Assembly (NCBI GenBank): GCA_023248535.1
Contig: JAHFEJ010000002.1
Coordinates: 2,714-66,713 of the forward strand
Length of the DNA: 64,000 nt
Direction of reading: 5' to 3'
Source: Nitrospinales bacterium
GTDB taxonomy: Bacteria; Nitrospinota_A; UBA7883; JACRGQ01
Part shown: one piece after another, positions 10,841 through 56,952 of the stretch
Layout: every line of letters begins with the position of its first letter
How positions within the stretch are numbered: position 1 is the first letter of the stretch
Made by a program: the position numbers and the translations under genes
The notes under the pieces: model-generated
The model's input: only the letters and a program-made list of their open reading frames with translations
The model's database searches: none
What the model was told of the DNA's origin: nothing

Positions 10841-10908
10841 AACCACTGAGGCACATGAGTCACAGAGGGATAAAGAGCGGGAGATTTTTTCTCCGTGGCT
10901 CTGTGGTT
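10841..10908. repeat. Palindromic intergenic element copy A (family TIR AACCACAGAGGCACAGAG / CTCTGTGCCTCTGTGGTT)
   Basis: AACCACTGAGGCACATGAGTCACAGAG...CTCCGTGGCTCTGTGGTT with a short unique core. Intergenic. Confidence 0.7.
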
Positions 10909-10925
10909 ATTATAAACAGCCTAAA

Positions 10926-11333
10926 TTACTTCACGCCTTTGGCGATCAAATGCTCCACATAAAGCAGGTCCGTCTTGAGAATGTGTTTGTACAGCCAGTC
11001 TTTCAGGAAATCCATGACCGCCATTGACAAAACGGTTTTGCCGCTGGTGAAATTGTTCAGCACGTCGGTGGCCTGTTTCGCCAGATCGTCGTGTTCCTTC
11101 TTGTGCGCGTCGTAACCGGAAAAGGCGTACTTTTTCATGTAGTCCTCTTCAATGGCGAAATGCGAGGCGGTGTAATTCACCAGTTCGGCAAGCACCTTCC
11201 CCATGACCTCTTTGCTTTTTCCGTGCAACATCGAGTCATGCAGTTCGTTAACCATCCCGAACAGCTTTTTGTGTTGATCGTCGATGCTTTTAATTTTGAC
11301 GCTGTACTTCTCGTCCCAAGGAATAAACGCCAT
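10926..11333 (-). CDS. Bacteriohemerythrin (hemerythrin HHE cation-binding domain)
   Basis: 135 aa. His/Asp/Glu ligand pattern (HF..E, H..EH, H..D) typical of hemerythrins. Confidence 0.75.
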   Translation of the reverse strand: MAFIPWDEKYSVKIKSIDDQHKKLFGMVNELHDSMLHGKSKEVMGKVLAELVNYTASHFAIEEDYMKKYAFSGYDAHKKEHDDLAKQATDVLNNFTSGKTVLSMAVMDFLKDWLYKHILKTDLLYVEHLIAKGVK

Positions 11334-11436
11334 AAATACCTCCAGTTAGCAGAATTTTATGTAACTATTTACAACACCCTATTGAAAGGCTAACATGAAA
11401 GAGTAATGGGGTCAAGTAGCTCCCGTACGCTGTGGA

Positions 11437-12087
11437 TTATGCGCGCTTGGGAAGGCGGCGGTTGCGGAAGAATTCCACCACGGCGGGGATGAAGGAGACA
11501 ACGATAATGCCGATGACAACCAGGCCGAAATGGCTCTTCACCGCCGGGATGTTGCCGAAAAAGTAGCCGCCATAGAGCAGCAGGCCTATCCAGGCGATAC
11601 AGCCCGCGACGGAATAGACGATGAATTTGGGGTAGTTCATCGCCCCGATGCCGGCGACGAACGGCACGAAGGTGCGGAAGAGCGGCATAAAGCGGGCCAG
11701 TATCACCGCTTTGGCGCCGTGCATTTCATAAAAAAGCTTTGTCCGTTCAAGATATTCCTCTTTCAGGAACGGTACCCAGCGCCATTTGAACACCTTGGGG
11801 CCGATGATGTCGCCGAGGGCGTAGTTGGTGATGTTCCCCAGCGTGGCCGCCACCGCCAGGGAAAAAAACAGCGTTTCGTGCGACAGGGCGCCCCCCGCCG
11901 CCAACGCGCCGAGGGCGAAGAGCAGCGAATCGCCGGGGAGGAATGGCGTCACCACCAGGCCGGTTTCGGCGAAGATGATGAGGAAGAGGATGCCGTAAGT
12001 CCACGCGCCGTACTCTTGCGCCAGTGTGCCCAGGTGCTGGTCGATATGCATGATGAACGGCACGAGGCTGGTGATGAATTCCATCAT
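11437..12087 (-). CDS. DedA/SNARE-associated family inner membrane protein
   Basis: 216 aa. DedA signature FAETGLVVTPFLPGDSLL and multiple TM helices. Confidence 0.85.
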   Translation of the reverse strand: MMEFITSLVPFIMHIDQHLGTLAQEYGAWTYGILFLIIFAETGLVVTPFLPGDSLLFALGALAAGGALSHETLFFSLAVAATLGNITNYALGDIIGPKVFKWRWVPFLKEEYLERTKLFYEMHGAKAVILARFMPLFRTFVPFVAGIGAMNYPKFIVYSVAGCIAWIGLLLYGGYFFGNIPAVKSHFGLVVIGIIVVSFIPAVVEFFRNRRLPKRA

Positions 12088-12089
12088 CA

Positions 12090-12182
12090 GTGATTCCCGC
12101 CTGCCAGCGTTTCCTTCAACTGGTCGAGATCATGGATGACGAGGATGCGCTCGGCAACATTTTCGATGAGTTTCAACATGGA
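12090..12182 (-). CDS. Possible 30-aa leader peptide translationally coupled to dedA
   Basis: MLKLIENVAERILVIHDLDQLKETLAGGNH. GGGAGAG Shine-Dalgarno 8 nt upstream. Its TGA overlaps the dedA ATG (ATGATGG). Confidence 0.3.
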
Positions 12183-12380
12183 TTGCAGTCTCTCCCAAGA
12201 TTCAGGTTTTCAGATTTGGAATTGTAGCTGATTTTCCGGTTAACCATGTCCTGTTTTTTGCCGCTGCAGGAAAGCCGAAGCTTAATACCCTGTCCTGAAT
12301 TAAAACAGCTGTCTCTGGCCTTATTGTAGACATTTCGTTGCGTGAGTATTTGAACATGTTGTATTGGCAGGCGTTATATG

Positions 12381-12398
12381 CTGGCATGAAGAATGCTT
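12381..12398 (+). promoter_or_regulatory. Candidate sigma-54 (-24/-12) promoter CTGGCATGAAGAATGCTT
   Basis: GG and GC dinucleotides at the canonical 12-nt spacing (TGGCAT-N5-ATGCT). About 65 nt upstream of the lipoprotein start. Confidence 0.25.
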
Positions 12399-12462
12399 TT
12401 ATAAGTGGTCAAGTATGGAAAATCACACGATCTTAACTATAACCTCTGAGAGAGAAAAGAAT

Positions 12463-13098
12463 ATGACGAAGAGTTTTTATCGCCGTGGCTCGCTGTTTTT
12501 TGCCGGATTAGCCATGATTTGGCTTTTCGCCGCGTGCGGCTCGGCGGCGACCAAGAATGGTGGGGAAAGCGGCGGCGGTGGAAACAATGAGGTTGAGGCG
12601 ACATCGAGCAATGAGACATCGCATGCCCAAACCAGTGGCACTGATACCACGGGTGAGCTGAATATTACAACCAGCACCAATACCAGCACGAATACCGCCA
12701 CCACCACAACCACCGCCACTTCCACCACCACCACAACTGCCGGCCAGACCGCGGTTTATACGGTGGCTTTTACCGTCAGCGCGGCGCCGGCCACCATCAC
12801 CTCCGCCACCACGCCGACCTTCACCTGGATCCCGGCTTCGCCCGCTTATAAGGTGTATGTGACATTGGCCGGTTCCACCACCATCAAGTGGGGCCTTAAG
12901 TGCGCCACCGGCACCAATTGCATCAACAGCCCGGTCAATCTGGGCGATCAATCCGTCACTGGCGCAACGGCTACGCCGGTTGGCGCCACACCGGCGGCCA
13001 CCACATTGGCGGCCGGCACCTATAACGTTGTTGTAGAAACCGCCAGCACCACCGGCACCATCTCGCAGGCCGGGTGGGTGGCGTTCACCGTTCAATAA
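12463..13098 (+). CDS. Thr/Ser-rich low-complexity lipoprotein
   Basis: Lipobox LFAAC. Poly-T/S linker (TTSTNTSTNTATTTTTATSTTTTT) followed by a beta-rich C-terminal domain. Good RBS (GAGAGAGAAAAG) before the ATG at 12463. Confidence 0.6.
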   Translation: MTKSFYRRGSLFFAGLAMIWLFAACGSAATKNGGESGGGGNNEVEATSSNETSHAQTSGTDTTGELNITTSTNTSTNTATTTTTATSTTTTTAGQTAVYTVAFTVSAAPATITSATTPTFTWIPASPAYKVYVTLAGSTTIKWGLKCATGTNCINSPVNLGDQSVTGATATPVGATPAATTLAAGTYNVVVETASTTGTISQAGWVAFTVQ

Positions 13099-13116
13099 GT
13101 TCTCTACCTCCTCCCC

Positions 13117-13157
13117 GCCCGCCGGATTCCTCCCACCGGAACCGGCGGGTTTTTTTT
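13117..13157 (+). terminator. Rho-independent terminator
   Basis: CCCGCCGG...CCGGCGGG stem followed by TTTTTTTT. Confidence 0.7.
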
Positions 13158-13194
13158 ACGCGCGGCGCGTGGATGGGAGAGCATTGGAGGGAAT

Positions 13195-13290
13195 GAACCA
13201 CAGAGGCGCGGAGACACTGAGAAACAGCGTGTTCAGGAGTGGCGTTAAGAAACCAGTTTTTAACTCTGTGCCTCTGGGGCTCTGTGGTTA
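13195..13290. repeat. Palindromic intergenic element copy B
   Basis: AACCACAGAGGCGCGGAGACACTGAG...CTCTGTGCCTCTGGGGCTCTGTGGTT. Confidence 0.7.
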
Positions 13291-13323
13291 TATGTATGCG
13301 GGAAGAGTCACAGAGAAGCGCGT

Positions 13324-14121
13324 TTAAGCGTCCGCCGCTACGCGGCTGGTGCCGCCCACGATGAAACCCCGTTTGCTTGCATTGATGAAATCGAGGATTT
13401 TCCGCACGGATCCGCTTTCGTCCGGCAGGGCCGCAAGCTCTTCCTTGGCTATTTTCAGGTTTCCCCGTTTGGCAAAAAGGATTTTGAACGCCTGTTTTAT
13501 CTCCGCCCGCGCCCCGTCTGAAAAGCCCTTCCGCTTCAGACCCACCATGTTGAAGGTGCGGATATGCGCGGGATTCCCCTGGGCCACCATGTAGGGAACC
13601 ACGTCCTGCAGGATGAGCGCGGCCCCCCCGATCATCGCGTATTCGCCCAGCCGGACAAACTGGTGGATGCCCGCATGCCCGCCGATGATAACGTGGTTAT
13701 GCACCGTTACGTGGCCGGCAAGCCCGGCGTAAGTGGTGATGATCACGTTGTCGCCGATGGCGCAGTCGTGCCCGATGTGCGTATTGGTCATGATCATGCA
13801 ATCGTCGCCAACCGCCGTGACACCGTTCTCGTCCTTGCTGCGGTGGATGCTGACGAGTTCCCGTATGTCGTTGTTTTGGCCGATCCGGACGAGTGACGGG
13901 ACCTCCTTCCAGATCAGCATCTGCGGGTTGCCGCCGATGATCGATCCGGCCCCTATCCTTGTTCCTTCGCCGATGCGCGCGTGATCCAGCCACGTTTGGG
14001 GGCCGATGACGCAGCGGGGGCCGATCTCGACGTTCGCCCCGATGACGGCAAAGGGGCCGACCGTGGCGGTGGCGTCTATCCGCGCGTCTTTATGGATGAC
14101 GGCCGAGGGATGGATGCTCAT
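13324..14121 (-). CDS. lpxA: Acyl-ACP--UDP-GlcNAc O-acyltransferase LpxA
   Basis: Left-handed beta-helix hexapeptide repeats. [15 protein letters not shown] start. An ATGA overlap couples it to fabZ. Confidence 0.9.
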   Translation of the reverse strand: MSIHPSAVIHKDARIDATATVGPFAVIGANVEIGPRCVIGPQTWLDHARIGEGTRIGAGSIIGGNPQMLIWKEVPSLVRIGQNNDIRELVSIHRSKDENGVTAVGDDCMIMTNTHIGHDCAIGDNVIITTYAGLAGHVTVHNHVIIGGHAGIHQFVRLGEYAMIGGAALILQDVVPYMVAQGNPAHIRTFNMVGLKRKGFSDGARAEIKQAFKILFAKRGNLKIAKEELAALPDESGSVRKILDFINASKRGFIVGGTSRVAADA

Positions 14122-14558
14122 TCTTCGACGCTCAACACGGCGGTGATATCGGCCTTGCAGGCAAGCTCGTCCCCCACATGCGCGGTTCCCGACAGCCACC
14201 AGATGCGCTGGCGGGTCTTTGTCACCTTCAGCTCGAGGATGAGGGTATCCCCCGGAACGACCTGGCGCTTGAATTTCGCCCCATCGATCCCGGCGAAGAG
14301 CAGGATCTTTCTGCCGGGGAGGTCTTTGATGGATTTGATGGCGAGGTAAGCACCGGCCTGCGCCATCGCCTCTATCATCAGCACGCCCGGCATGATCGGC
14401 TTCCCCGGGAAGTGGCCGTTGAAGAACGGCTCGTTCATGGTGACGTTTTTGATGGCCTTGACGGATTCATTCTCCTTCATCTCCAGCACCCGGTCGATCA
14501 GCAGGAACGGGTAGCGGTGCGGGATGGTTTCCATTATGTCGTTGATATCCATGTCCAT
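14118..14558 (-). CDS. fabZ: 3-hydroxyacyl-ACP dehydratase FabZ
   Basis: 146 aa hotdog fold. [12 protein letters not shown] active-site motif. Confidence 0.92.
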
Positions 14559-14564
14559 GAACGG

Positions 14565-15566
14565 TCATTCCCCTTTCTTCTCAAGCGCCGTAAGGCGGCG
14601 CAATATTTCAGGTCCGCGGCGGTAGGCCACTTCGGCCCGCCGCCATTCGTTGATCGGCATTGCGTAGCCGCCGCCGAAGATGCCGGGGCCGATGTCGCCG
14701 GTGACGCCGGTTTTTCCCGCGATGAATGTGTTATCGGCGATGGTGATGTGGTCGGCCATGCCGACCAGCCCGCCGATGGTGACGTGTTTGCCGATGGTGA
14801 CGGAACCGGCGATACCGCATCCGGCGGCGATGACGGTGTGATCGCCGATGACGCAGTTGTGGCCGATCTGCACCAGGTTGTCGATCTTCACCCCGTCGCC
14901 GATGACCGTCTCGTCCAGCATCGCGCGGTCGATGCAGCTGTTCGCGCCGATCTCCACGTCGTCCCCGATCCGCACGCGGCCAATGTGGCTAACTTTAATG
15001 CGGCGGCCCCCCTCGCCGGTAAGGAACTTGAAGCCGTCCGCCCCGATGACCGCCCCGGCGTGGATGATGGCCCGCTTGCCGATGGCGGTATGGGGATAGA
15101 TGGTGACGTTGGGATGGATGACGCTGTTATCGCCGATCGCGGTGCTTTCCCCGATGGAGGCGGATTGATGGATGACGACGTTATCTCCCAGCCGCGATCC
15201 CGCGCCGATGCTGGCGTAGGGGCCGACGTGGCATCCGTGGCCCAGCTTGGCTTCCAGGTGGACGGTGGCGGTGGGATGAATCCCGGGGGCCGGTTTTTTC
15301 GCGGGGTGCAAGGCGTCCATCGCCGTGGCGAAGGCAATGGCGGGATTTTTTACTTCGATGACATTGATCCCCTCCAGCCTCATGCCGGGGGAAACAATGG
15401 CGCAGGCGGGACGCCGTCCGCCGAGTTGGGGGACGAACTTTTTATCTTCGAGGAATACAATGCCCCCCGGCCCCGCATTGGCGAGCGACGAACAGCGGGC
15501 GGCTTCCTGTTCCGGGTCGCCGACGAGCGTTCCCCCCACCAGCGCGGCAATCTCCTTTAATCGCAT
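14565..15566 (-). CDS. lpxD: UDP-3-O-(3-hydroxyacyl)glucosamine N-acyltransferase LpxD
   Basis: 333 aa. N-terminal LpxD domain followed by hexapeptide repeats. Canonical lpxD-fabZ-lpxA order. Confidence 0.9.
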
Positions 15567-15624
15567 GGCGTCATTGTATAGCGGCCCCCCGCCAAAAAAA
15601 AGTGCTTCTCCGGCTTATGAATAT

Positions 15625-15718
15625 AACCACAGAGGCCCAGAGGCACAGAGCCGCAAAAAAGATTTTTGATGTCATTCACCAACAAGCTGTTTCTCCGTGC
15701 CTCCGTGGCTCTGTGGTT
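15625..15718. repeat. Palindromic intergenic element copy C
   Basis: AACCACAGAGGCCCAGAGGCACAGAG...CTCCGTGCCTCCGTGGCTCTGTGGTT. Confidence 0.7.
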
Positions 15719-15780
15719 TTTTGTCTCTAAAAAGCGGGGATTCCTTGCAAGGTTGCGCCGCCGCGCTTACACTTGAGGCG

Positions 15781-17223
15781 ATGACGCAAAAAATACTTTT
15801 CGTCGCGCCGCCGACAAACGCCACGAAACAGCTTACGCCCGACCTCGGCATCGGCTTCCTGGCATCCGCCCTGCGCGATGCGGGGTTTTCGGTCGATTTC
15901 ATCGATGTGCGCCGCGACGGTTTCTCCCGCGCGGCATTTATCCAGCGGCTGCGGCGCGAGCCGTACCTCTTCGTGGGGGTGAAGGTTTTTTCCACTTCGC
16001 TGCCGGAAGCGAACGAAGTGCTGAACGCCGTGCGCGAGGCGTTGCCGCAAACGAAGATCGTCATCGGCGGCCCCCACCCCACCTACGCGCCGGTTGACGC
16101 GCTGAAAAGCTGCCCCGCCGCCGACGTTGGCATCATCGGCGAAGGGGATGTGGCGGTGGTTGCGCTGGCCAATGCCTTCGCACAGGGGAACAGCGTCGCC
16201 GACATCGAGGCCATCGCGTTCCGCGACGGCAGCACGATACGGGTGAATGGGCGAAAGTCGTTCCTCGATCTCGAACGGCTGCCGATCCCGGCGTGGGATC
16301 TCATCGATCCGCGCCGTTATGTGGGCCACGAAGACCTCTGGTTCTTCAGCAAGGGGAAAGTGACCGCGCCGATATCGGTCGGCCGCGGCTGCCCGTTCAA
16401 GTGCACCTTCTGTTCCGATTTCATCGTGGCGGGGCGCAACGTCCGCTACCGCCCCGTTGAAAAGGTGATGGACGAGATCGCGCTGCTGGTGAACGAATAC
16501 GGCGTCGACGAGATACACCTCACCGATTCCATTTTCACCATCAACAAAAAGTACGTCTACTCCTTCTGCGAGAACTTGCAAAAACGGAACCTGAAAATCC
16601 ACTGGGCCACCCCTTATGGCACGCGGCTGGATACGCTGGATGTGGAACTGCTGGGCGCGATGGAGCAGGCGGGCTGCTACGGCACCTCCGTCGGCATAGA
16701 GGCGGGCAGCGACCCGATGCTGGCCTTCATGAAAAAGGGGGTTACGGTGGCGCTGGTGGAGGAAAAAATCGCGCTCATCAAGACGAATACCAAGTGGCTG
16801 GTGCAGGGGTTCTTCATTTTAGGCTATCCCACTGAAACGCGCGAAACGATGCGCGCGACCATCGATCTGGCCTGCCGCCTGCCGCTCGATATGGCGGTCT
16901 TTGCGCCGTTCCGCGCCACGCCGGGAACGGAAGTGGCGGCCTACCTCGCCGCGAACGAGCCGGAGTTCACCCCCAAATGGGGAAACCAAACCGTTGAGCA
17001 ACTTGTTTACCACCCGCGCGGCATCGGCGTGGAAGAGCTGGAGCAGTGGCATCGCCGCGCGTACCGCGCGTTCTACTTCCGCCCGCGGGTGGCGTGGCGC
17101 TATCTGATGATGATACGCGGTAAGAAGGAGCTGCGGCTCCTCGCCACCAAATTCAAGAACCGCATCTTCCGCCGCGCATCAGTTGAGGCGGATTCCACCT
17201 CTCCTCCCGTCTGGGCCTCGTGA
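15781..17223 (+). CDS. B12-binding domain radical SAM protein (class B)
   Basis: N-terminal cobalamin-binding-like domain. CPFKCTFC (CxxxCxxC) radical SAM motif. Confidence 0.8.
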   Translation: MTQKILFVAPPTNATKQLTPDLGIGFLASALRDAGFSVDFIDVRRDGFSRAAFIQRLRREPYLFVGVKVFSTSLPEANEVLNAVREALPQTKIVIGGPHPTYAPVDALKSCPAADVGIIGEGDVAVVALANAFAQGNSVADIEAIAFRDGSTIRVNGRKSFLDLERLPIPAWDLIDPRRYVGHEDLWFFSKGKVTAPISVGRGCPFKCTFCSDFIVAGRNVRYRPVEKVMDEIALLVNEYGVDEIHLTDSIFTINKKYVYSFCENLQKRNLKIHWATPYGTRLDTLDVELLGAMEQAGCYGTSVGIEAGSDPMLAFMKKGVTVALVEEKIALIKTNTKWLVQGFFILGYPTETRETMRATIDLACRLPLDMAVFAPFRATPGTEVAAYLAANEPEFTPKWGNQTVEQLVYHPRGIGVEELEQWHRRAYRAFYFRPRVAWRYLMMIRGKKELRLLATKFKNRIFRRASVEADSTSPPVWAS

Positions 17224-19844: not shown

Positions 19845-19924
19845 GGGGAGCAATTGTAGCAACTGCGGGCAGAAGGTGGAAGGACGGGTTTGCCTGTGGG
19901 CGTTCCTTGGTGGCCCAGCTAATT

Positions 19925-20260
19925 TTATTTCCCGGCAAACTTTTCCAATGTTGCGACCAGCGGCGGTAAGTCGGCGGTAACGGTGTCCCACACCACGTTC
20001 TGATCGATATCGAAGTATGCGTGAATAAGCCGGTTTCGCATTGTGATGATATCTTTCCACGGGATGTCCGGCAGTTCATTACGGCTTTCGGCGGATATTT
20101 TTGAGGCCGCCTCCCCGATGATTTCAATCGACTTAACGAGTGACAGCAGAAGCATCCTATCGGTTTGCAGCTCTTCCCTTGTTCTGCCTTTGATGAACCT
20201 TATGGCATCAAGCGCGCCATCGCGCATGTGCTGAAGCCGTATCAGGTCATCCCTTTTCAT
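19925..20260 (-). CDS. hepT: HepT-like (DUF86) toxin of a HepT/MntA TA pair
   Basis: 111 aa. Rx4HxY motif (RNRLIHAY). Confidence 0.8.
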   Translation of the reverse strand: MKRDDLIRLQHMRDGALDAIRFIKGRTREELQTDRMLLLSLVKSIEIIGEAASKISAESRNELPDIPWKDIITMRNRLIHAYFDIDQNVVWDTVTADLPPLVATLEKFAGK

Positions 20261-24096: not shown

Positions 24097-24150
24097 GAAG
24101 CTTTGAAAATATTTCTGGATCCCGGCTCAAGGCCGGGATGACAAAAAATC
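24097..24150 (+). other. Conserved motif AGCTTTGAAAATATTTCTGG + variable hairpin + GATGACA (copy 1 of 3)
   Basis: 22-nt identity with the copies at 48459 and 48589. Stem sequences differ but remain complementary. Confidence 0.55.
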
Positions 24151-31068: not shown

Positions 31069-31326
31069 ATGTTTAAGAAATTTGGCCTTTTGGCAGTGGT
31101 CGTGATGTTCGCGGGCGCGCTTGCAGTTCTTCCGGCTTGCGAGAAGAAAGAAGAAGCCCCGGCAGCTCCGGCCCCGGCGGCAGCCCCGGCTCCCGAAGCA
31201 GCCCCGGCAGCGGCTCCGGCTCCCGAAGCAGCCCCGGCAGCGGCTCCGGCTCCTGAAGCAGCCCCGGCAGCAGCCCCGGCCCCCGCAGCGGCACCGGCTC
31301 CGGCAGCAGCCCCGGCCCACAAGTAA
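31069..31326 (+). CDS. Small Ala/Pro-repeat lipoprotein
   Basis: Lipobox LPAC. Three 30-bp tandem nucleotide repeats encoding APEAAPAAAP. Confidence 0.6.
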   Translation: MFKKFGLLAVVVMFAGALAVLPACEKKEEAPAAPAPAAAPAPEAAPAAAPAPEAAPAAAPAPEAAPAAAPAPAAAPAPAAAPAHK

Positions 31327-31340
31327 GCCGATCCTTAAAA

Positions 31341-31369
31341 AGGGGGCGGATTTCCGCCCCCTTTTTTTT
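31341..31369 (+). terminator. Rho-independent terminator
   Basis: AGGGGGCGGA TTTC CGCCCCCT followed by T9. Confidence 0.85.
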
Positions 31370-31586
31370 CGCCTAATTTCAGCAATCAGCGTCTTTCCAT
31401 GCGCCATTACCGCACCGTTATATAATCATCCTGTGAACAATGCCGCCCGCGCGGAAATCTTTGGCGAAAAACTGCGCGCCGAAAACGGCGTGGCCGCGGC
31501 GATGGGCTTTATTGAAGACGCGCTCGCCAAGGCTTCCCGCCTCTATAAGGAGCCTTAAAATTGTATTAACAATAAGATGTTTCTAT

Positions 31587-31713
31587 AACCACAGAGACAC
31601 ACGAGACACAGAGAAAAACATCATCTTTTTTCCCCTTTTACGAAGGAGGGGAAAGAGGGGAATGCAACGGGTAAAAGACCCTTCCCCGTCTGTGCCTCCG
31701 TGCCTCTGTGGTT
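31587..31713. repeat. Palindromic intergenic element copy D
   Basis: AACCACAGAGACACACGAGACACAGAG...CTGTGCCTCCGTGCCTCTGTGGTT. The core contains a CCCCTTTTACGAAGGAGGGG hairpin. Confidence 0.7.
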
Positions 31714-33157: not shown

Positions 33158-33189
33158 AGCTATTGATCCCCGCATTTATAATGTCCCAT

Positions 33190-33240
33190 ACATGGGTGGC
33201 GCGGACACTCTTGTCCGCGTTGTGCCCGCAAGGGCACAAC
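33190..33240. other. Paired hairpins GGACACTCTTGTCC + GTGCCCGCAAGGGCAC (recurs at 48397-48430)
   Basis: The same two-hairpin arrangement with small substitutions occurs in a second intergenic region. Confidence 0.4.
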
Positions 33241-33347
33241 TGTTTAATTGCCGCGCGGGTATTGCGCGCCCTGCCGGACGCGCCACGGGCAAGAGTGCCC
33301 GTGCCACCAAATGCAACTTTCTTAAATAAAACATTATTTAACGCCCA

Positions 33348-35216: not shown

Positions 35217-35219
35217 AGT

Positions 35220-35558
35220 AACCACAGAGGCACAGAGACACAGACGGGAAAGGTGCGGCATAACCCGAAAGGTTGTCATACTGAGGGAGCGCTGGCGACC
35301 GAAGTATCTCTTTCCGGCAAGAGCGCTGAAGGTTTTCTCTGTGTCTCCGTGCCTCAGTGGTGATTTCTCATTTTCATATCGGCACCATAATGTTTGGAAT
35401 AACCACCGAGACACAGAGCCACAGACGGGAAAGGGGCGGCATAACTTGGAAGGTTGTCATACTGAGGGAGCACTGGCGACCGAAGTATCTCTTTCCGGCA
35501 AGAGCGCTGAAGGTTTTCTCCGTGCCTCCGTGCCTCTGTGTCTCCGTGCCTCTGTGTT
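35220..35558. repeat. Tandem pair of palindromic elements (E1 35220-35362, E2 35401-35558) sharing an ~95-bp conserved core
   Basis: Both copies carry GACGGGAAAGG(T/G)GCGGCATAAC...GGTTGTCATACTGAGGGAGC(G/A)CTGGCGACCGAAGTATCTCTTTCCGGCAAGAGCGCTGAAGGTTTTCTC between the family TIRs. About 90% identity. Lies between mnmG and rsmG. Confidence 0.8.
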
Positions 35559-35590
35559 TATTTTTTCCCTACGCATGATGCAAGGTTGCC

Positions 35591-36139
35591 ATGACAGATA
35601 AACTCATCACGCGCTATCTGGACGAGCTTTACCGCTGGAATGAAAAGGTGAACCTCACCTCTGTCGCGCGGGAAAAGGCCCACGCGGTGCTCATCGAGCC
35701 GTCGTTCGCGATGGCGGAGTTCTTTCCGCCGGGGGATACGCTGGAGATTTTCGACATCGGCAGCGGCGGCGGACTTCCCGCCATCCCGCTCGCCGTGCGC
35801 CATCCGCGGCACCGTTTCACTCTGGTGGAATCGGACCGGAAGAAGGCGGTTTTTTTACAGCACGCCGCCGGTCTGCTGGGATTGAAAAACGTGCGGGTGC
35901 TGAACGAGCGGAGCGAAAAGGTTTCGCAAGACCCCGCTTGCCGCGGAACCGCCGATGTTGTAACCTCGCGCGCCGTGAAGAGGGAAGATGTTTTTGCCGC
36001 CGCCGACGGCCTGTTGAAACCATCGGGCCGCGTCATCATCCACCACACCCCCGACGCCCCGGAAGTGGCCTCCGGTTACCACCTTTACGGCAAAATCCCC
36101 TCCGCCGACTGCTTCACCCGCCATCTCACCGCCCCATAA
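35591..36139 (+). CDS. rsmG: 16S rRNA (guanine527-N7)-methyltransferase RsmG (GidB)
   Basis: 182 aa. SAM-binding DIGSGGGLP motif. Conserved mnmG-rsmG synteny. Confidence 0.88.
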   Translation: MTDKLITRYLDELYRWNEKVNLTSVAREKAHAVLIEPSFAMAEFFPPGDTLEIFDIGSGGGLPAIPLAVRHPRHRFTLVESDRKKAVFLQHAAGLLGLKNVRVLNERSEKVSQDPACRGTADVVTSRAVKREDVFAAADGLLKPSGRVIIHHTPDAPEVASGYHLYGKIPSADCFTRHLTAP

Positions 36140-36539
36140 ATGCCACTATCCGCTTTACCAATAACGGCGTTTTTTTAATCTGGCATTCCCAAATCACAAG
36201 CGTTTTCCAACCCTGTTTTTTCAGCGCTAGAAGGTTTTTTTGGTCACGTTCTTTGTTTCTTGATAACTTTGCCTTCCAATACTTGATATTCGATTTTGGC
36301 ATGTGTGCGATGCCACATTGATTACTTTCATGTGTGTGCCAAAAGCATCCATGGACGAAAATGGCTTTTTTTCCGCTTCTAAACACCAAGTCCGGCTTGC
36401 CGGGCAAATCGGAAGCATGAAGGCGGTAACGGTAACCAAGTTGATAAACGGTTTTTCTTACGGCGATTTCAGGCTTCATCCCCTTGCCCCGGATGCGCCG
36501 CATGTTCTCGCTTCGCGCGTCGGGGGTGAGCTTATCCAT
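36126..36539 (-). CDS. vsr: Very-short-patch repair endonuclease
   Basis: 137 aa. Vsr motifs (PDLVF, FVHGCFWH). 8-nt overlap with the HNH gene. Confidence 0.88.
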   Translation of the reverse strand: MDKLTPDARSENMRRIRGKGMKPEIAVRKTVYQLGYRYRLHASDLPGKPDLVFRSGKKAIFVHGCFWHTHESNQCGIAHMPKSNIKYWKAKLSRNKERDQKNLLALKKQGWKTLVIWECQIKKTPLLVKRIVAFMGR

Positions 36540-37125
36540 CCTTCAGTTGTTTTTTGGCATCCTTGGGAAACTTGCCGATAAGCCAATTCAATACTGAAAT
36601 CTGATCAGTGGCCGGTGCTCTGCGGATTTGCGCCAACAATTTGCTGGCCGAAGGACGCTCAAGCGTAATATTGGCCGCCCCTTCATTGCAGACGGAACAA
36701 ATGGCGCGCAGGTTGGATGGATCGTCATCGCCACCTAATGATTTATCTTTAACGTGGCCTATGTGCAACCGGGTCTTGCGGGTGGGGTCATAAGGATGGG
36801 GTTCTCCGGCTGCCGCCCCGCACATCTGGCAGGTATACCCGTTTCGATCCAGAACAAGGGCGCGGGTTTCTTTTGATATTTCGCGGGCAAAGGCGGGCAC
36901 CGGCTTGGGGTTCTCAAGCAGATAGTCCCCCGGTTTCAAATTGCTCCGGTCATTGTGGGTCAGTATTTGGTATCCCTCTTCCGTGCGCAGTTCCCGGACT
37001 CTCCTTGCCCACTCGCTGGTGTTGCCCGCGATTTTTCTTAATTCATCCGAAGACATGACTTTGCCTATATTTTTCAGAAAATGTGCCCGGAGTTTCGCCC
37101 TCGCGCCATTTGATTTCTTTTTCAT
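36532..37125 (-). CDS. HNH nuclease, putative restriction endonuclease of a Type II R-M system
   Basis: 197 aa. CxxC...HIGH...N...CxxC HNH core (CQMCG, HIGHVKDKS, CSVCN). Sandwiched between the m5C MTase and vsr. Confidence 0.65.
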   Translation of the reverse strand: MKKKSNGARAKLRAHFLKNIGKVMSSDELRKIAGNTSEWARRVRELRTEEGYQILTHNDRSNLKPGDYLLENPKPVPAFAREISKETRALVLDRNGYTCQMCGAAAGEPHPYDPTRKTRLHIGHVKDKSLGGDDDPSNLRAICSVCNEGAANITLERPSASKLLAQIRRAPATDQISVLNWLIGKFPKDAKKQLKDG

Positions 37126-37129
37126 AATC

Positions 37130-38083
37130 TTAGCTTGCCACCTGAACCAATTGCCGCCTGGTCAGGCACTTTACCAACTGTTGTGCAACTGCGTGAGCCA
37201 CCGGAGAGGGAAAAGCGTTTCCCACTTGACGGTAGGCGGGGGTTTTTTTTCCATGAAATTGCCAGTCATCCGGGAAACCTTGTATGCGTGCCACCATTCG
37301 CACCGTCAGCCGGGGCATGCCGATAAAATCCTTGGCCGGGGCTTCATCCACAATGCCCCGGCCATCGACCCCCAATGCGGCCCACGCTTTTCTTGCCCTT
37401 GTCGGCCCCAAATCCGGCCCGCCATGCTTAAGGGAACCGCCAACTATCGTTGGCGCGATCTCATTGGCTTGTTTGGCCCAGTTTTTTGCGCCCTTCCATC
37501 CATTGAAGGCCATAAGGTCATATAGCGTTTCGCCAACAGTGGGGGGATGGGCCGATAATCTGAAAGGCCACGAAAAATTTTCCCATAAGTCAGATTTAAG
37601 GGCCACAAAGATAACGCGGGGCCGCAACTGCGGCACCCCGAAATCACTGGCATTGAGCAAAGCCCAATCGGTTTTATAACCAAGTTTTTTTAGTTCTTTG
37701 GCGACGTACAGGCGGTAATCCTGAAAGACGGCGTCCAGTATTCCCCGGACATTTTCAATCATTACCGCGCGAGGCCTGATTTCATCAACCAGCCTGATGG
37801 CGGCTGGAAAAAGATTGCGTTCATCATCTTCGCCCAATTGCTTTCCCGCCTTTGAAAACGGAGGACAGGGCAACCCCCCGGCGAACAGATCAACCCCTTT
37901 GTACGGCTTGCCGTTAAACTCCTTGATATTTTCCTGCAAGACGTTCCACTGAGGGCGGTTAAGCGTTAGGGTGTTGCAAGCGTTTTTATCAAGTTCGACA
38001 AGAGCCTGATGATCGAAGCCGGCTTTTTCAAGCCCAATAGCTTGTCCCCCCGCCCCGGCGCATACCTCAACTGAAGTCAGCAT
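37130..38083 (-). CDS. DNA (cytosine-5)-methyltransferase
   Basis: 317 aa. Motif I (EVCAGAGG), motif IV (GLPCPPFS), motif VI (ENV) and motif X. Confidence 0.9.
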   Translation of the reverse strand: MLTSVEVCAGAGGQAIGLEKAGFDHQALVELDKNACNTLTLNRPQWNVLQENIKEFNGKPYKGVDLFAGGLPCPPFSKAGKQLGEDDERNLFPAAIRLVDEIRPRAVMIENVRGILDAVFQDYRLYVAKELKKLGYKTDWALLNASDFGVPQLRPRVIFVALKSDLWENFSWPFRLSAHPPTVGETLYDLMAFNGWKGAKNWAKQANEIAPTIVGGSLKHGGPDLGPTRARKAWAALGVDGRGIVDEAPAKDFIGMPRLTVRMVARIQGFPDDWQFHGKKTPAYRQVGNAFPSPVAHAVAQQLVKCLTRRQLVQVAS

Positions 38084-45776: not shown

Positions 45777-45870
45777 CGCAAATCCATCCTGTTGGCCATC
45801 AAGGGCGGAGTGCCGGAAGCGGGCGATTATGAAAAGGGATGACCTTGTTGGAAAAGTCCGCCGGGAAATA

Positions 45871-45891
45871 AAATTGGCTGGCCACCAAGGA
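45871..45891. repeat. Direct repeat of the tRNA-Gln 3' end (AAATTGGCTGGCCACCAAGGA)
   Basis: Identical to 46029-46049. A further inverted partial copy TTCGAATCCTTGGTG lies at 46002-46016. Confidence 0.75.
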
Positions 45892-46032
45892 ACGCCCACA
45901 GGCGCGGTCGCATCACGCTCCCGCTTTGCGGGCCGCCTTGCTTGCTATGCCGGACATCCTGTCCGTCATGCGCTCCCTAACCGGTCACGCCGCGCGCTTG
46001 CTTCGAATCCTTGGTGCAAGTTATGGAAAAAT

Positions 46033-46106
46033 TGGCTGGCCACCAAGGATTCGAACCTCGATAGGCAGATCCAGAATCTGCTGTCCTACCATTAGACGAG
46101 TGGCCA
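46033..46106 (-). tRNA. tRNA-Gln (anticodon CUG)
   Basis: Manual fold: U1-A72 acceptor (TGGCCAC/GTGGCCA), D-arm GTCT/GGAC, anticodon stem GCAGA/TCTGC with loop TTCTGGA, T-arm CGAGG-TTCGAAT-CCTTG, discriminator G, encoded CCA. Confidence 0.85.
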
Positions 46107-48458: not shown

Positions 48459-48512
48459 AGAGAGCTTTGAAAATATTTCTGGATCCCCGTTTTCACGGGG
48501 ATGACAGGAAAA
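48459..48512 (+). other. Conserved motif AGCTTTGAAAATATTTCTGG + hairpin + GATGACAGG (copy 2)
   Basis: Stem CCCCG/CGGGG here. Stems are CCCGGC/GCCGGG in copy 1 and TGCCGGA/TCCGGCA in copy 3. Confidence 0.55.
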
Positions 48513-48588: not shown

Positions 48589-48643
48589 AGAAAGCTTTGA
48601 AAATATTTCTGGGTGCCGGATCGGTGTCCGGCATGACAGAAAT
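48589..48643 (+). other. Conserved motif copy 3, immediately 5' of cbiR-like gene
   Basis: Ends 12 nt before the RBS/start of the gene at 48658. Confidence 0.55.
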
Positions 48644-53299: not shown

Positions 53300-53362
53300 C
53301 CCCATCCGCCGCCGGGGCGGTTCCTGTGTTACAATCAGCAAAATTGCCATAAAAATGCAGTA

Positions 53363-53707
53363 TTGGGGGAATTAATGGAAACGTATTACAATCCCGCGGA
53401 CCTTGGAAAATTTGGCGACATGGGGAAGGATGCCCCGGAGCTGTGGAATGCTTTCATGCAGTGGTACGGCAAGGTTTTTGCCGAGGGGGAACTCACCGCG
53501 CGTGAGAAATCGCTCATCGCCTTGGCGGTCGCCCACGCCGTGCAGTGCCCCTATTGTATCGACGCCTACACCAAGGACTGCCTTGAAAAAGGCTCCAACA
53601 CCGGCCAGATGACCGAGGCAATCCACGTGGCGGCCGCCATACGGGGGGGGGCCTCGATGGTGCACGGAGTGCAAATGCGCAACGCTGCGGAAAAACTATC
53701 GTTTTAA
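53363..53707 (+). CDS. AhpD-like (carboxymuconolactone decarboxylase family) CxxC redox protein, partner of the ArsS-type radical SAM enzyme
   Basis: 114 aa. CPYC motif within an AhpD core. 3 nt upstream of the radical SAM gene. Confidence 0.65.
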   Translation: MGELMETYYNPADLGKFGDMGKDAPELWNAFMQWYGKVFAEGELTAREKSLIALAVAHAVQCPYCIDAYTKDCLEKGSNTGQMTEAIHVAAAIRGGASMVHGVQMRNAAEKLSF

Positions 53708-53709
53708 CG

Positions 53710-54678
53710 ATGCCCGCCACCATTACTCCATTCGACGACGCGCTTAAATCGTGCGGGCTTTACCCGTTGCGCGCCGACGGCATCGCCACCCTGCAGATGA
53801 ATTTGGGCAAAAAATGCAACCAGGCATGCAACCACTGCCACGTCGAGGCGGGGCCGAACCGCACCGAAATGATGGGGGAAGCCGTGATGGACCGCTGCAT
53901 CGCCCTGCTGGAAAGCGAGCGGATACCGGTGCTGGATATCACCGGTGGCGCGCCGGAACTGCACCCGTGCTACCGGGCGTTTGTCGAACGCGCCCGCGCC
54001 ACCGGCGCAACCGTCATGACGCGGTGCAACCTCACCATATTGCGCGAACCGGGGATGGACGACCTTCCCGCGTTTTGGAAGGCGCATAACGTAGCCATCG
54101 TCGTATCGCTCCCCTACTTCCGCCGCGAAGAGACCGATGCGGTGCGCGGCAAGGGGGTTTTTGAAAAATCGGTGGAAGCCCTCAAGCGGCTGAACGAAAT
54201 CGGTTATGGCGTCGAGGGGAGCGGCCTTTCGCTGAACCTCGTTTACAACCCGGCCGGGGCGTTCCTCCCCGCGCCGCAGGAGGCGATAGAGGGGCAATTC
54301 CGCGCGGAATTGAAGAAAAACCACGGCATTTCCTTTAATCACCTGTTCGCCTTGACCAACATGCCAATCGCGCGTTTTAAGGACCACCTCATCCGCAAAA
54401 ACACGCACGAGGGTTATCTGCAACGCCTCGCGGGGGCGTTCAACCCCGGCGCGGCTGAAAACGTGATGTGCCGGTCGATGATCTCGGTTGGATGGGACGG
54501 ATTTTTATTCGACTGCGATTTCAACCAGATGCTCAACCTGCGCGTCAATCACGGCGCACCCTTCCACATCAACGATTGGAACCGGCACGCCCTCGCGGGA
54601 CGGCAGATCGTCACCGGCCCGCACTGCTACGGCTGCACCGCCGGGCAAGGCTCCAGTTGCGGCGGAAAGACTTCTTGA
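53710..54678 (+). CDS. Radical SAM/Cys-rich domain protein of the ArsS (arsenosugar biosynthesis) family
   Basis: CNQACNHC (CxxxCxxC) near the N-terminus. C-terminal Cys cluster CYGCTAGQGSSCGG. Confidence 0.65.
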   Translation: MPATITPFDDALKSCGLYPLRADGIATLQMNLGKKCNQACNHCHVEAGPNRTEMMGEAVMDRCIALLESERIPVLDITGGAPELHPCYRAFVERARATGATVMTRCNLTILREPGMDDLPAFWKAHNVAIVVSLPYFRREETDAVRGKGVFEKSVEALKRLNEIGYGVEGSGLSLNLVYNPAGAFLPAPQEAIEGQFRAELKKNHGISFNHLFALTNMPIARFKDHLIRKNTHEGYLQRLAGAFNPGAAENVMCRSMISVGWDGFLFDCDFNQMLNLRVNHGAPFHINDWNRHALAGRQIVTGPHCYGCTAGQGSSCGGKTS

Positions 54679-54683
54679 AGCGG

Positions 54684-55178
54684 GTGCTCCCCTTTTTTCT
54701 GGCCGCCCTCATGACCGCCGGATGCAGTTACCATCTTGCGGGGCAAGGGAGCAGCCTGCCTGAAAACATCAAAAGCATTGCCATCCCCGTTTTTGAAAAC
54801 GACGTGCAGCAGCCGAACCTCGATATCGCCGTTACGCGCGCCGTGACGGAAACATTCATCAGGGACGGACGACTGGCGGTGGTTGACGGCGGGGCCGACA
54901 GCCTGCTGCTGGGCACCATTAAAAGCTACGCGCTGGAACCGGTGGCTTTTGACACCCTCAACCGGGTTACCCAGTACCGCGTTAAATTGATGGTGAAGGT
55001 CAAATTCACCGATAACACCGGCAAAGGGCTGTCGCTGGAGCGCGACCTGCGGGTGCAGTGGGATTATAATGTTGGCACAGCCATTCCGGTGGCCGAAACC
55101 GCGCGGAACCAGGCGGTTTTGGAAGCGGCCGGCTATCTGGGCGACCGGATCGCCGGCATGATCCTCGACGGTTTTTAA
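54684..55178 (+). CDS. lptE: LptE-like LPS-assembly lipoprotein
   Basis: Lipobox LMTAGC. About 165 aa, the size and pattern of LptE/RlpB. Start codon uncertain: TTG 54675 or GTG 54684, overlapping the upstream stop. Confidence 0.5.
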   Translation: MLPFFLAALMTAGCSYHLAGQGSSLPENIKSIAIPVFENDVQQPNLDIAVTRAVTETFIRDGRLAVVDGGADSLLLGTIKSYALEPVAFDTLNRVTQYRVKLMVKVKFTDNTGKGLSLERDLRVQWDYNVGTAIPVAETARNQAVLEAAGYLGDRIAGMILDGF

Positions 55179-55339
55179 CGGCAAGGAGCGGCGCCATTTC
55201 CCACACTGTCTACGGCAACATATCGGGGCTGCCCCATGCGGCCCTCAAAAGCCTCGAACGCGTTTACCGGCGTAAAATTCCCGCCGGGCAGCTCATTACC
55301 GATGAACTCCTGCTGTACATCGCCAAGCTTTCCTCGGAG

Positions 55340-56833
55340 TTGGGGCGGCAGATAGCCCTGCTGATCGACCGCAAAGGGAAAATCACGCACGTCATTGCGG
55401 GCAACGACCATCAGATCGTCATCCCCAATTTGGGACAGCGCCGCGTGGCCGGCAAACGGCTGGCCGGATACCGTTGTGTGCATACCCACCTGAAAGGGGA
55501 GCCGGTCACGCGGGACGACCTGAACGACCTTCTGCTGCTGCGGCTCGACGCGATGGCCGCCATCGACGTGCGCCCGGACGGCACGGCGGGAAAACTGCAC
55601 CTCGCCCACATCGAAGCGGGCGAAGAGGACCGCTATGCCTCGCACGGCGGGCTTACCCACCCACGGGCCGAAGAGCTGTATCAGGGGCTGATAGAGCGGG
55701 TGGAGCGCGAACTGGAAAAGACCGTCATCGTAAAAAAGGTGGAGACGGAACAGAGCGCGCTGCTGATACACGTCTCGGGCAAGCCGAAGCTGCAAATGGA
55801 CATATCGCTGGACGAGCTGGCCGAATTGGCCCGCAGCGCGGGGATCGCCGTGGCGGGACGGGTGACGCAGCGTCGCGACGTGCCCGATCCGAAATTCCTG
55901 ATGGGGCACGGCAAAATGCAGGAGTTCATGATCAAGGCGCTCTCGCTGGGGGTGGACATGGTGATATTCGATACCGAGCTGACCCCCGCGCAGATAAAGG
56001 CGATTTCCGATTTCACCGACCTGGAAGTGCTCGACCGCACCCAGCTTATCCTCGGCATCTTCGAGAAGCGCGCCACCAGCCGCGACGGCAAGGTGCGCGT
56101 GCAACTGGCGCAGATGAAATACCTGCTCCCCCGGCTGGGCGCGAAAGAATCGGCCCTCTCGCGCATTCGCGGCGGCATCGGCCTGCGCGGTCCCGGCGAA
56201 ACCACCGCCGAAACGCAGCGCCGCCACCTGCAGGGGCGCATCGCCCAGTTTGAAAAGGAACTGGAGAACCTGAAGAACCGCCGCGAACAGAAGCGGAAGA
56301 AACGCGGCCGCTCCGAGGTGAAAACCGTTTCGATACTCGGCTATACCAACGCGGGCAAATCGACGCTCCTCAACCGCCTCACCGGCAGCGACCTGCTGGT
56401 GAAAGACCTTCTCTTCTCCACGCTCGACCCCGCGACCCGGCGGCTCTGGCTGCCGAACGGCAAAGAGGTGGTCATCAGCGATACGGTGGGGCTGATCCGC
56501 AACATGCCCGAATCGCTGCGCGGCGTGTTCCGCGCCACGCTGGAGGAGCTGGCCGAATCCGACCTGCTCATCAACCTGGCAGACATCTCGAACCCCGAAC
56601 TGGATGCACACATGAAAGTCACCGAAGAGATCATCGAGGATATCGGCCTGGCGGAAATTCCCGTCATCACGGTTTTCAACAAAATAGAACTGGCCGACGC
56701 CGAACAGGCCCAAAACATCTGCCGCCGCCACGGCGCGCTCGGCCTCAGCGCCGTCACCGGCGAGGGGCTGGACGAGCTGAAACAGAAGATCAGCGGTGCG
56801 CTCTTTACATTCCCGGGATCAAAGGAGCCATAA
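55340..56833 (+). CDS. hflX: GTPase HflX
   Basis: HflX N-terminal and GTPase domains (GYTNAGKSTLLN, DTVGLI, NKID). Apparent TTG start. Unusual ~100-aa N-terminal extension. Confidence 0.8.
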   Translation: MGRQIALLIDRKGKITHVIAGNDHQIVIPNLGQRRVAGKRLAGYRCVHTHLKGEPVTRDDLNDLLLLRLDAMAAIDVRPDGTAGKLHLAHIEAGEEDRYASHGGLTHPRAEELYQGLIERVERELEKTVIVKKVETEQSALLIHVSGKPKLQMDISLDELAELARSAGIAVAGRVTQRRDVPDPKFLMGHGKMQEFMIKALSLGVDMVIFDTELTPAQIKAISDFTDLEVLDRTQLILGIFEKRATSRDGKVRVQLAQMKYLLPRLGAKESALSRIRGGIGLRGPGETTAETQRRHLQGRIAQFEKELENLKNRREQKRKKRGRSEVKTVSILGYTNAGKSTLLNRLTGSDLLVKDLLFSTLDPATRRLWLPNGKEVVISDTVGLIRNMPESLRGVFRATLEELAESDLLINLADISNPELDAHMKVTEEIIEDIGLAEIPVITVFNKIELADAEQAQNICRRHGALGLSAVTGEGLDELKQKISGALFTFPGSKEP

Positions 56834-56952
56834 ACCACCGAGTCGCAGAGGCACAGAGTTGGAAAACAAGACTCTTATTGCCATCATATTGATATGCTAT
56901 TTCTCCGTGTCTCTGTGTCTCTGTGTCTCTGTGTCTCTGTGTCTCAGTGGTT
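56833..56952. repeat. Palindromic intergenic element copy F with an internal (TCTCTGTG)x5 microsatellite
   Basis: AAACCACCGAGTCGCAGAGGCACAGAG...(GTCTCTGT)n...CTCAGTGGTT. Confidence 0.7.

Follow-up and report, generated by a model that had tools for sequence, protein, structure and literature searches.

A 64-kb stretch of a Nitrospinales genome (GCA_023248535.1, contig JAHFEJ010000002.1, positions 2,714 to 66,713; hereafter the window) carries seven copies, A to G, of a short palindromic element in which two inverted tandem arrays of an octamer, capped at their outer ends by a conserved motif, enclose a variable core. We propose the name capped octamer-array foldback element and favour, with a probability of roughly 0.55, the reading that these elements are a non-autonomous, foldback-type, hairpin-forming interspersed repeat that resembles repetitive extragenic palindromes (REPs) and bacterial interspersed mosaic elements (BIMEs). 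The original prediction, made from the letters of the window, had described a non-autonomous palindromic family of this kind, a description that is supported by gain in this lineage, by position behind stop codons and by insertions of IS110-family insertion sequences (ISs). We call the family REP/BIME-like because it shows lineage-specific gain, is multi-copy, lacks target-site duplications, sits behind stop codons, forms mosaics and is targeted by ISs.

Of all the components of bacterial genomes, short interspersed repeats rank with the most poorly understood, and this family has neither an Rfam entry nor a name, with one passing mention in the literature that we searched. It is ordinary as a class and unusual in its architecture and breadth, with hosts among the Desulfobacterota, Nitrospinota-like bacteria, Cyanobacteria and Gammaproteobacteria and with many phages as carriers. 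The family was recorded once, uncharacterised, in Geobacter in 2009, and the window adds a new host lineage. New here are the cap, the unit consensus CAC-R-R-A-G-R, the solo form and the lack of target-site duplication, together with the rule of placement behind stop codons, phage carriage, spread across phyla and targeting by IS110-family ISs. The signature is simple to search for (a cap, then octamers at a period of 8).

The window copies are inverted pairs of capped octamer arrays

Searching the window with AACCACAGAGGCACAGAG (up to three mismatches) gave 20 matches, compared with none in 100 dinucleotide-preserving shuffles, and all 20 belong to elements A to G. Clusters of at least two CACNGAG/CTCNGTG units occur in seven places, all of them these elements, so that no copy was missed; the seven copies listed in the original prediction were recovered with coordinates that were exact or off by 1-2 nt. 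The arms are tandem arrays of period 8, the left arm reading [CAC-R-GAG-R] two to three times and the right arm being the complementary array, (N)CTC[C/T]GTG, two to six times. The imperfect terminal inverted repeats that had been described stand as shared arms, whereas the unitary 18-mer proposed for them does not, the arms being octamer arrays of variable length. A single arm, (CACRGAGR)n, is a direct tandem array that is not self-complementary, and a hairpin needs both arms; all seven window copies are inverted pairs of arrays. Their outer ends are capped AACCAC...GTGGTT, and their inner ends pass into GAGAAA...TTTCTC, a junction rich in purines on one side and in pyrimidines on the other. 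The enclosed cores measure 21-90 nt and differ from copy to copy, as predicted, being mutually unrelated except in E and F.

Element A (10841-10908, 68 nt) has the left arm AACCACTGAGGCACATGAGTCACAGAGG, the right arm CTCCGTGGCTCTGTGGTT and a core of about 21 nt, and lies between the stop of a hemerythrin gene (10926, - strand) and the start of a GFO/IDH/MocA oxidoreductase gene (10747, - strand). Elements B (13196-13289, 94 nt) and C (15625-15718, 94 nt) each have three units per arm and a 41-nt core; B has the lpxA stop (13324, - strand) on one side and, on the other, a bidirectional terminator that is conserved, and C occupies the spacer from which lpxD (- strand) and a B12-binding radical-SAM gene (+ strand) diverge. 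Element D (31587-31713, 127 nt), also with three units per arm, has a 73-nt core with strong internal hairpins of its own and stands 28 nt past the stop of a Pro/Ala-rich open reading frame (ORF), with mnmE 76 nt further on. Element E (35220-35362, 143 nt; three units per arm, core 90 nt) begins 3 nt past the mnmG stop codon and is followed by its tandem duplicate, element F (35401-35559, 159 nt), which ends 31 nt before rsmG and in which the right arm has grown to five units and the outer cap has decayed to GTGTTT. The first base of element G (56833-56952, 120 nt; three units in the left arm, six in the right) is the last base of the hflX stop codon, and a Sel1-repeat gene follows 91 nt on. 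A fivefold octamer microsatellite had been assigned to the sixth copy; the run exists, as a near-perfect (TCTCTGTG) x6.0 at 56902-56949, but it lies in the right arm of the seventh copy, G, and the sixth has 4.9 mixed units. The ORF upstream of D (31121-31558) has no Pfam match and consists mostly of Pro/Ala-rich repeats of 30-nt period (Tandem Repeats Finder (TRF), 31171-31298, 4.3 copies).

By Pfam-supported gene calls all seven copies lie in spacers, in agreement with the predicted intergenic placement, and an ORF that seemingly overlaps element C is an artefact of GTG codons within the arm. The predicted lack of an accompanying transposase gene was likewise upheld, the ~45 gene-sized ORFs of the window that were scanned against Pfam being housekeeping genes or without a match, with no transposase and no integrase among them.

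GTG codons in CTCNGTG arms create false upstream starts in 8-nt steps (at 15697-15780 in the window and at many fetched loci), with ORF starts at -22, -14 and -6 as counted from the end of the element; set against orthologues of 480 aa, the radical-SAM ORF of the window is called with 28 codons too many. In the one other assembly of the region, a Logan contig (SRR14366785, 1-100), the break falls exactly inside the right arm of element F, showing that the repeats fragment short-read assemblies. Broken short-read assemblies and false GTG starts in gene calls are among the practical effects of the family.

Elements E and F make up 1.8 copies of a tandem duplication with a 181-bp period (35208-35540, + strand, 91% identity, TRF score 575). 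They align over 152 nt at 91% identity, which confirms the tandem pair with a shared core that had been noticed between mnmG and rsmG, and the duplicated unit takes in 12 nt of the upstream flank of each element. The core is 94% identical between the copies and is predicted to adopt a multi-stem fold. E and F are not two separate insertions.

When folded as RNA, the elements are predicted to form long stems with a break at roughly every eighth position and energies of -21 to -66 kcal/mol; the z-scores lie between -3 and -7 in six of the seven, and F, which was trimmed before folding, gave a z-score of -1.3. Element A reached -24.9 kcal/mol (z -3.1 on the + strand, -4.0 on the - strand), element D -58.7 kcal/mol (z -6.9), element E -66.5 kcal/mol (z -5.4) and element G -47.9 kcal/mol (z -6.8), and the z-scores were -3.4 and -4.3 for B and -5.3 and -6.9 for C.

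Capped octamer arrays span several phyla and phages

Scans with three consecutive units (CACNGAGNCACNGAGNCACNGAG) recovered at least 120 phage-contig stretches from IMG/VR and at least 120 stretches from JGI metagenomes, and among the matches listed window-type inverted pairs numbered 69 and 60, respectively. Contigs with such pairs span 36-72% G+C. The IMG/VR contigs are genuine phages, with portal, large terminase, major capsid and tail tube genes as recurrent neighbours. BLAST of the consensus arm against PLSDB found solo arrays in Nostocales plasmids (Anabaena cylindrica, Calothrix, Nostoc) and a full pair 24 nt past the fmdC stop codon in a plasmid of Candidatus Thiodictyon syntrophicum; the same arm had no real match in an annotated phage collection. 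The family spans several phyla and is carried by phages.

Family statistics were drawn from 76 pairs, the 7 of the window and 69 from phage contigs. In these the two ends are symmetric, an A-rich tract being followed by TT[C/A]ACCAC-R-GAG-R-CAC-R-GAG, and the terminal consensus in 151 ends is TT[C/A]ACCAC...GTGGT[G/T]AA. A cap-anchored scan (TTCACCAC-N5-CAC-N5-CAC) found two main unit types under one cap, RGAG in 34 arrays and RAAG in 10, from which the unit is CAC-R-R-A-G-R. The arms are ~85% Watson-Crick complementary, and ~90% of units have a purine as their eighth base.

A check for target-site duplications, which the original prediction had suggested, found none at offsets 0-11 and lengths 2-8 among the 76 elements. 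Outside the cap and its TT/AA flank, identity between the flanks stays at the ~25% chance level (lengths 2-8), nearer offsets reflecting the palindromic cap, and exact flank duplications of 5 or 8 nt number zero in the same set.

Copies typically stand ~4-20 nt 3' of a stop codon. In the phage set the median distance between the stop codon and the outer end that faces the 3' end of the gene is ~12 nt, with 46 of 60 elements within 40 nt; in the independent metagenome set the median distance past the stop codon is 17 nt. The spacers of the 60 phage-set elements are codirectional in 50 cases, divergent in 8 and convergent in 2, against a background of 292/42/34, and placement follows this background mix of intergenic types. 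Major-capsid genes of phages lie beside arrays more often than other genes do (9/19 vs 191/1003; Fisher p = 0.005, post hoc), which weakly hints at a role in segmental mRNA stability.

Arm length varies in 8-nt steps, with the sixfold (TCTCTGTG) run of element G as a sign of slippage, and whole elements can be duplicated in tandem, as in E/F. Core subfamilies recur inside other contigs (L011/L015, L048, L060 and L008/L019 among the fetched loci), in line with a joint movement of arms and core; nested inverted arrays of other units of 7-9 nt are frequent in cores (L008, L019, L021, L034, L048, L051), and whole spacers may be mosaics of several array and hairpin types (L003). The mosaics of L003, at 3560-3850 and 7340-7720, run from a capped CACGGAG array into an array of AAGTTGGTAA, ATCTGCG arrays and several GGCTAAAGCC stem-loops, and this composite is present twice, inverted, 3.5 kb apart.

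Several other readings of the arrays were tried and rejected. A sense-strand bias of solo arrays in phage contigs (31 vs 14) was not replicated in the independent metagenome set (10 vs 16) and was dropped. Motifs like a -10 box or GAAT just before AACCAC in several window copies had suggested a promoter or small RNA; 211 aligned ends show an A-rich tract and TT, with no -35 or -10 consensus. Mimicry of Shine-Dalgarno or anti-Shine-Dalgarno sequences (GGAGG in CACGGAGG, CCTCC in the opposite arm) would apply to the G variant and leave out the commoner CACAGAG/CACRAAG units. A stop codon built into the cap (TAA/TGA/TAG-CCAC) is suggested by some solo arrays, and the commonest cap, TTCACCAC, contains none.

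The arrays were recorded once before, in Geobacter metallireducens

An alignment in the supplement of an earlier study presents class 2 of putative global-regulator sites in G. metallireducens, a class with 21 pairs (Aklujkar 2009, BMC Microbiol 9:109, PMC2700814, Additional file 8). As published, a class-2 site consists of three tandem repeats of TCTCCGTS[Y], the sites are intergenic and are paired on opposite strands at a variable distance, they are unique to G. metallireducens compared with G. sulfurreducens, and proteins of the IHF/HU type were guessed to be their binders (PMC2700814). Every class-2 pair listed in the table of that paper adjoins at least one gene 3' end. Like the window copies, then, the class-2 sites combine this unit with inverted pairing at variable distance, intergenic position and an adjacent gene 3' end, and, judged by the published consensus and architecture, the two probably belong to one family. 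The window copies differ in being mostly of the CACAGAG variant, in their AACCAC cap and in having up to six units per arm. The parts of the 2009 account that describe the sites say nothing of a hairpin or foldback structure, of the cap or solo arrays, or of carriage by phages and spread across phyla. The literature searched held no further mention of class-2 sites beyond this 2009 record, and neither exact 15-mers of the arms nor "octamer repeat" phrases gave a match there. G. metallireducens is culturable and genetically tractable, which makes direct tests of function possible in that host.

Window copies are gains of this lineage

MnmG and LpxD of the window are ~66% and 58-80% identical, respectively, to their counterparts in named Nitrospinota metagenome-assembled genomes, near which they place the organism. 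For comparison we used five loci from the closest genomes (L122, L135, L136, L140 and L142), which together cover ~81 kb at 80-91% protein identity. CACNGAG arrays number zero in this ~81 kb, four orthologous spacers included, versus seven in the 64-kb window. At site A both L140 and L142 have a canonical intrinsic terminator after the hemerythrin gene, where the window has element A instead. At site B the element is missing in L140 and L142, the neighbouring bidirectional terminator is kept in all three genomes, and the core shows no homology to what the relatives have in this spacer. The site C spacer holds a HEPN/nucleotidyltransferase gene pair in L142 and, in L140 (GCA_040961205.1, JBFONK010000645.1, 9690-9815), a decayed array hairpin with an AACCAC...GTGGTG cap and CACGAAT/CACAAAG units, which makes this spacer a repeated landing place for the wider family. 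At site E/F the mnmE, mnmG and rsmG genes of L135 overlap with no spacer, and L122 and L136 have an unrelated spacer of 192 nt. Because the relatives are without CACNGAG arrays, orthologous spacers included, we take the window copies to be lineage-specific gains of whole units, arms together with core.

The 190-nt mnmE-mnmG spacer of the window (33158-33347) holds about four small GC-rich stem-loops of another kind (e.g. GCGCGGACACTCTTGTCCGCG and GTGCCCGCAAGGGCAC) and, given the mnmE/mnmG overlap in L135, is likewise a lineage-specific gain. Small hairpins like these fill the 192-nt mnmG-rsmG spacer of L122 and L136.

IS110-family insertion sequences interrupt the elements

Among the JGI matches listed, an IS110-family transposase is the only recurrent mobile-element protein near the arrays, at four loci. 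An IS110-family IS sits in the core, between both arms, at L175; inside the left arm, after the first unit, at L242 (~30-1720); and inside an array of another unit, GTTGATGG, at L164 (~500-2260). L175 and L244 share IS junction sequences (TATGAAGCC ... GGCTTCATAGA). IS110-family ISs interrupt the elements and are not bounded by them, and the elements are landing sites for these bridge-RNA recombinases. REPs are reportedly targets of insertion sequences too, and REP-targeting insertion sequences reportedly include members of the IS110 family; these ISs would thus target octamer elements as they do REPs. In G. metallireducens, ISGme8, annotated as IS110 family, adjoins class-1 (GTTGCTYN) arrays, with a fixed distance between them, as far as the published description of that class goes (PMC2700814).

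Likeness to known repeats

REPs are defined in the literature as imperfect palindromes of 20-40 bp that are tagged GTAG or CGTC. The REPs, BIMEs and REPINs of Proteobacteria share with the octamer elements an extragenic position, high copy number, hairpin formation, inverted doublets with variable linkers, the forming of mosaics, the lack of a target-site duplication and a place close behind stop codons. They differ in that a REP unit is a palindrome, and so a stem-loop, of its own, whereas the arm of an octamer element is a tandem array and no palindrome; in that the octamer elements are tagged ACCAC/GTGGT at the outer end, without the GTAG/CGTC tag; and in that REPINs are associated with REP-associated tyrosine transposases (RAYTs), whereas the 64-kb window has no RAYT gene. 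Bacterial miniature inverted-repeat transposable elements (MITEs), such as Correia/NEMIS, ERIC, RUP and Nezha, are, like the octamer elements, small, non-coding and intergenic with terminal inverted repeats, and can be co-transcribed and fold into long hairpins. MITEs have a target-site duplication and internal sequence conserved from a parent IS, neither of which is seen in the octamer elements. Since the octamer elements thus fail the defining tests of both REPs and MITEs, the enzyme that spreads them is probably not a usual suspect.

Unit sequences of the short tandemly repeated repetitive (STRR) sequences were reportedly published in 1990. Arrays of the TAACTGA heptamer occur in Beggiatoaceae, Cyanobacteria and Bacteroidetes (MacGregor 2015, PMC4679880). 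STRR and TAACTGA arrays resemble the octamer arrays in having units of 7-8 nt, two to six or more in tandem, in intergenic positions and with a patchy distribution across phyla that suggests horizontal spread in both (PMC4679880). CACRGAG arrays likewise occur in plasmids of the Nostocales, which are hosts of STRR heptamers. Unlike the octamer elements, which are capped inverted pairs behind stop codons, STRR and TAACTGA arrays run as direct repeats and mostly lie just before start codons, with other units and another period.

Foldback (FB) transposons of Drosophila and other eukaryotes have inverted arms of short tandem repeats that vary in length from arm to arm and from copy to copy, around heterogeneous centres, and would be the closest architectural analogue of the octamer elements, with no homology implied; they are eukaryotic, of kilobase scale, and make target-site duplications. 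An integron attC site was considered and rejected: by eye only the left end of A and the right end of G fit the attC ends (RYYYAAC...GTTRRRY), and the family consensus TTCACCAC...GTGGTGAA does not.

How the elements may spread and act

An element consists of inverted arrays of CAC-R-R-A-G-R, the cap TT[A/C]ACCAC...GTGGT[T/G]AA and a variable core that sometimes contains a nested element. In the mechanism that we propose, it would be spread in trans, without staggered cuts, by an enzyme encoded elsewhere; our most parsimonious guess for this enzyme is a single-strand transposase of HUH/RAYT-like type that acts on hairpin and conserved cap. Phages may ferry the family between hosts and phyla. 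Once transcribed, a stem of 20-50 bp, interrupted at every eighth base, could act in the manner of a REP, as a 3' hairpin that stops exonucleases or serves as a substrate of RNase III, and the expression of neighbouring cistrons would be uncoupled in this way; it would not be a true terminator.

Several observations weigh against the reading of the elements as a mobile, hairpin-forming repeat. No mobilising gene was found in the 64-kb window, and an autonomous parent element had to be rejected: none of the 120 metagenome stretches listed has an arm pair 300-5000 bp apart, hence no gene-sized insert, and the proteins near arrays are phage structural proteins or interrupting IS110 transposases. 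The window copies share arms and, except in E/F, not cores, which leaves copy-and-paste from a master within the genome unsupported, and the spacers of the relatives are too diverged for an exact empty-site/filled-site junction to be defined. As for the hairpin, the eighth base is not complementary between the arms (0.37-0.47 observed vs 0.39-0.41 expected), a feature of the aligned arms that fits heptamer-specific recognition at least as well as selection for a hairpin; the sense strand has no excess of G-U-type mismatches (32 vs 48), and thus no RNA-specific signature is seen; and solo arrays that carry the same cap are roughly as frequent as pairs, a finding left unexplained by a model of pure foldback hairpins.

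A wider reading would take capped arrays, solo and paired, as cross-phylum, phage-disseminated recognition sites of one sequence-specific machine, which might be a new kind of single-strand transposase or else a protein that binds DNA or RNA and recognises heptamers spaced at a period of 8 nt. The same machine would both make and lengthen the arrays and would also control how flanking cistrons are expressed, phage capsid genes for instance, and the nested array types with units of 7-9 nt (GTTGCTYN, AAGTTGGT, CGCAGATN, AATTTGNA, STRR, TAACTGA) would be sister systems. Taken together as one proposal, this is tentative and, in our estimate, rather unlikely.

Alternative readings

The main rival to the REP/BIME-like reading, though still an unlikely one, makes the arrays binding sites of a sequence-specific protein, either a nucleoid-associated or global regulator or one that binds RNA or single strands. 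Each heptamer CAC-R-R-A-G would provide a single contact (in an array such as (CACAGAGG)3), and inverted pairs would lead to symmetric or looped complexes. Conservation of seven of the eight unit positions in both arms, with the eighth free and without covariation, is what such contacts would produce; the varying number of units per array, the cap shared by solo arrays and the variable distance between paired arrays agree with it as well, and binding sites are what Aklujkar et al. proposed in the passages on these sites (PMC2700814). The distribution speaks against it. The arrays are patchy, present here and absent from relatives with 80-91% identical proteins, and in G. metallireducens they were reported as unique relative to G. 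sulfurreducens in the published comparison (PMC2700814), so that a regulator would need to be transferred along with hundreds of sites. The flanking genes share no functional theme, the sites stand behind stop codons and not in promoter regions, arrays occur within phage structural modules, and no candidate protein was found.

That the elements serve as transcription terminators, or replace them, having evolved or been recruited at gene ends, is the role that the original prediction had raised, and we consider it doubtful. Element A does occupy the exact place of a canonical intrinsic terminator in two relatives, elements lie 4-20 nt past stop codons, their stems are very stable, and their flanks have a weak bias towards A on one side and towards T on the other, like those of bidirectional terminators. 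An intrinsic terminator combines a GC-rich stem with a U-tract directly behind it, an arrangement that the octamer elements do not show: T content next to the stem is 3.62 per 10 nt on the downstream side and 3.62 on the upstream side, and at least five T stand beside the stem in 19 vs 16 elements, so that no directional U-tract exists. A simple terminator scan of 10000-17000 calls none of the full hairpins. Placement follows the background mix, with 8 of the 60 phage-set elements between divergent genes and 2 between convergent ones; the terminator at site B has stayed conserved although element B was inserted upstream of it; the short spacers of the codirectional pairs mnmG-rsmG and hflX-Sel1 hold E, F and G; and one of the Geobacter pairs described separates the pdh E1 alpha and beta genes.

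The original prediction had also called the elements MITE-like. In the strict sense, as internally deleted derivatives of an IS with a DDE transposase whose terminal inverted repeats are the arrays, this is very improbable, even though terminal inverted repeats, small size, lack of coding capacity, multiple copies and restriction to one lineage are all in keeping with it. Target-site duplications are lacking in the 76 elements and no parent IS was found, the 240 fetched stretches containing no full-length element with these ends; the cores are unrelated within one genome; the arms are low-complexity tandem arrays of variable length, TTCACCAC(CACRGAGR)n, in place of a fixed terminal inverted repeat; and the only recurrent transposase nearby belongs to the IS110 family, which interrupts the elements.

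Least probable of all is that the cores, and that of E/F in particular, are small-RNA genes insulated by hairpin arms, as the 94% identity and multi-stem fold of the E/F core had suggested, because the identity continues beyond the core across the arms and 12 nt of flank, all of it a single segmental tandem duplication of 181 bp that accounts for the shared core with no small RNA needed, Rfam covariance models gave no match to any of the seven elements at the gathering score or at E<=10, the E/F core has no second copy in any DNA fetched, the 211 aligned ends show no promoter consensus upstream of the caps, and the other five cores are unrelated.

Other features of the window

Directly after rsmG, on the - strand at 36126-38083, genes for a Vsr very-short-patch endonuclease, an HNH endonuclease and a C5 DNA methylase open a stretch of low G+C (0.53 in the 36-44 kb bins vs ~0.61 in neighbouring bins). 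The trio stands elsewhere in L140, beside a PMT glycosyltransferase gene, and is missing from L135 at the rsmG site; with its low G+C, this differing location and absence in relatives make it look like a mobile methylase/repair island.

A 31-nt motif, AAGCTTTGAAAATATTTCTGGATCCC..., that is unrelated to the octamer family is present in three copies (24098-24128, 48462-48492 and 48592-48622) with 87-100% identity and could be a shared regulatory or promoter element. An inverted repeat of ~55 nt has arms 26 kb apart, at 19892-19948 and 45848-45903, that are complementary over 34 nt at 91% and over 41 nt at 80%, the second arm lying ~130 nt from tRNA-Gln(CTG) (46033-46106). Finally, a 55-nt direct repeat with 91% identity occurs at 3150-3204 and 7489-7543, with one copy just past the stop of a BNR/sortilin-like gene and the other at the 3' end of a PMT_2 glycosyltransferase gene.

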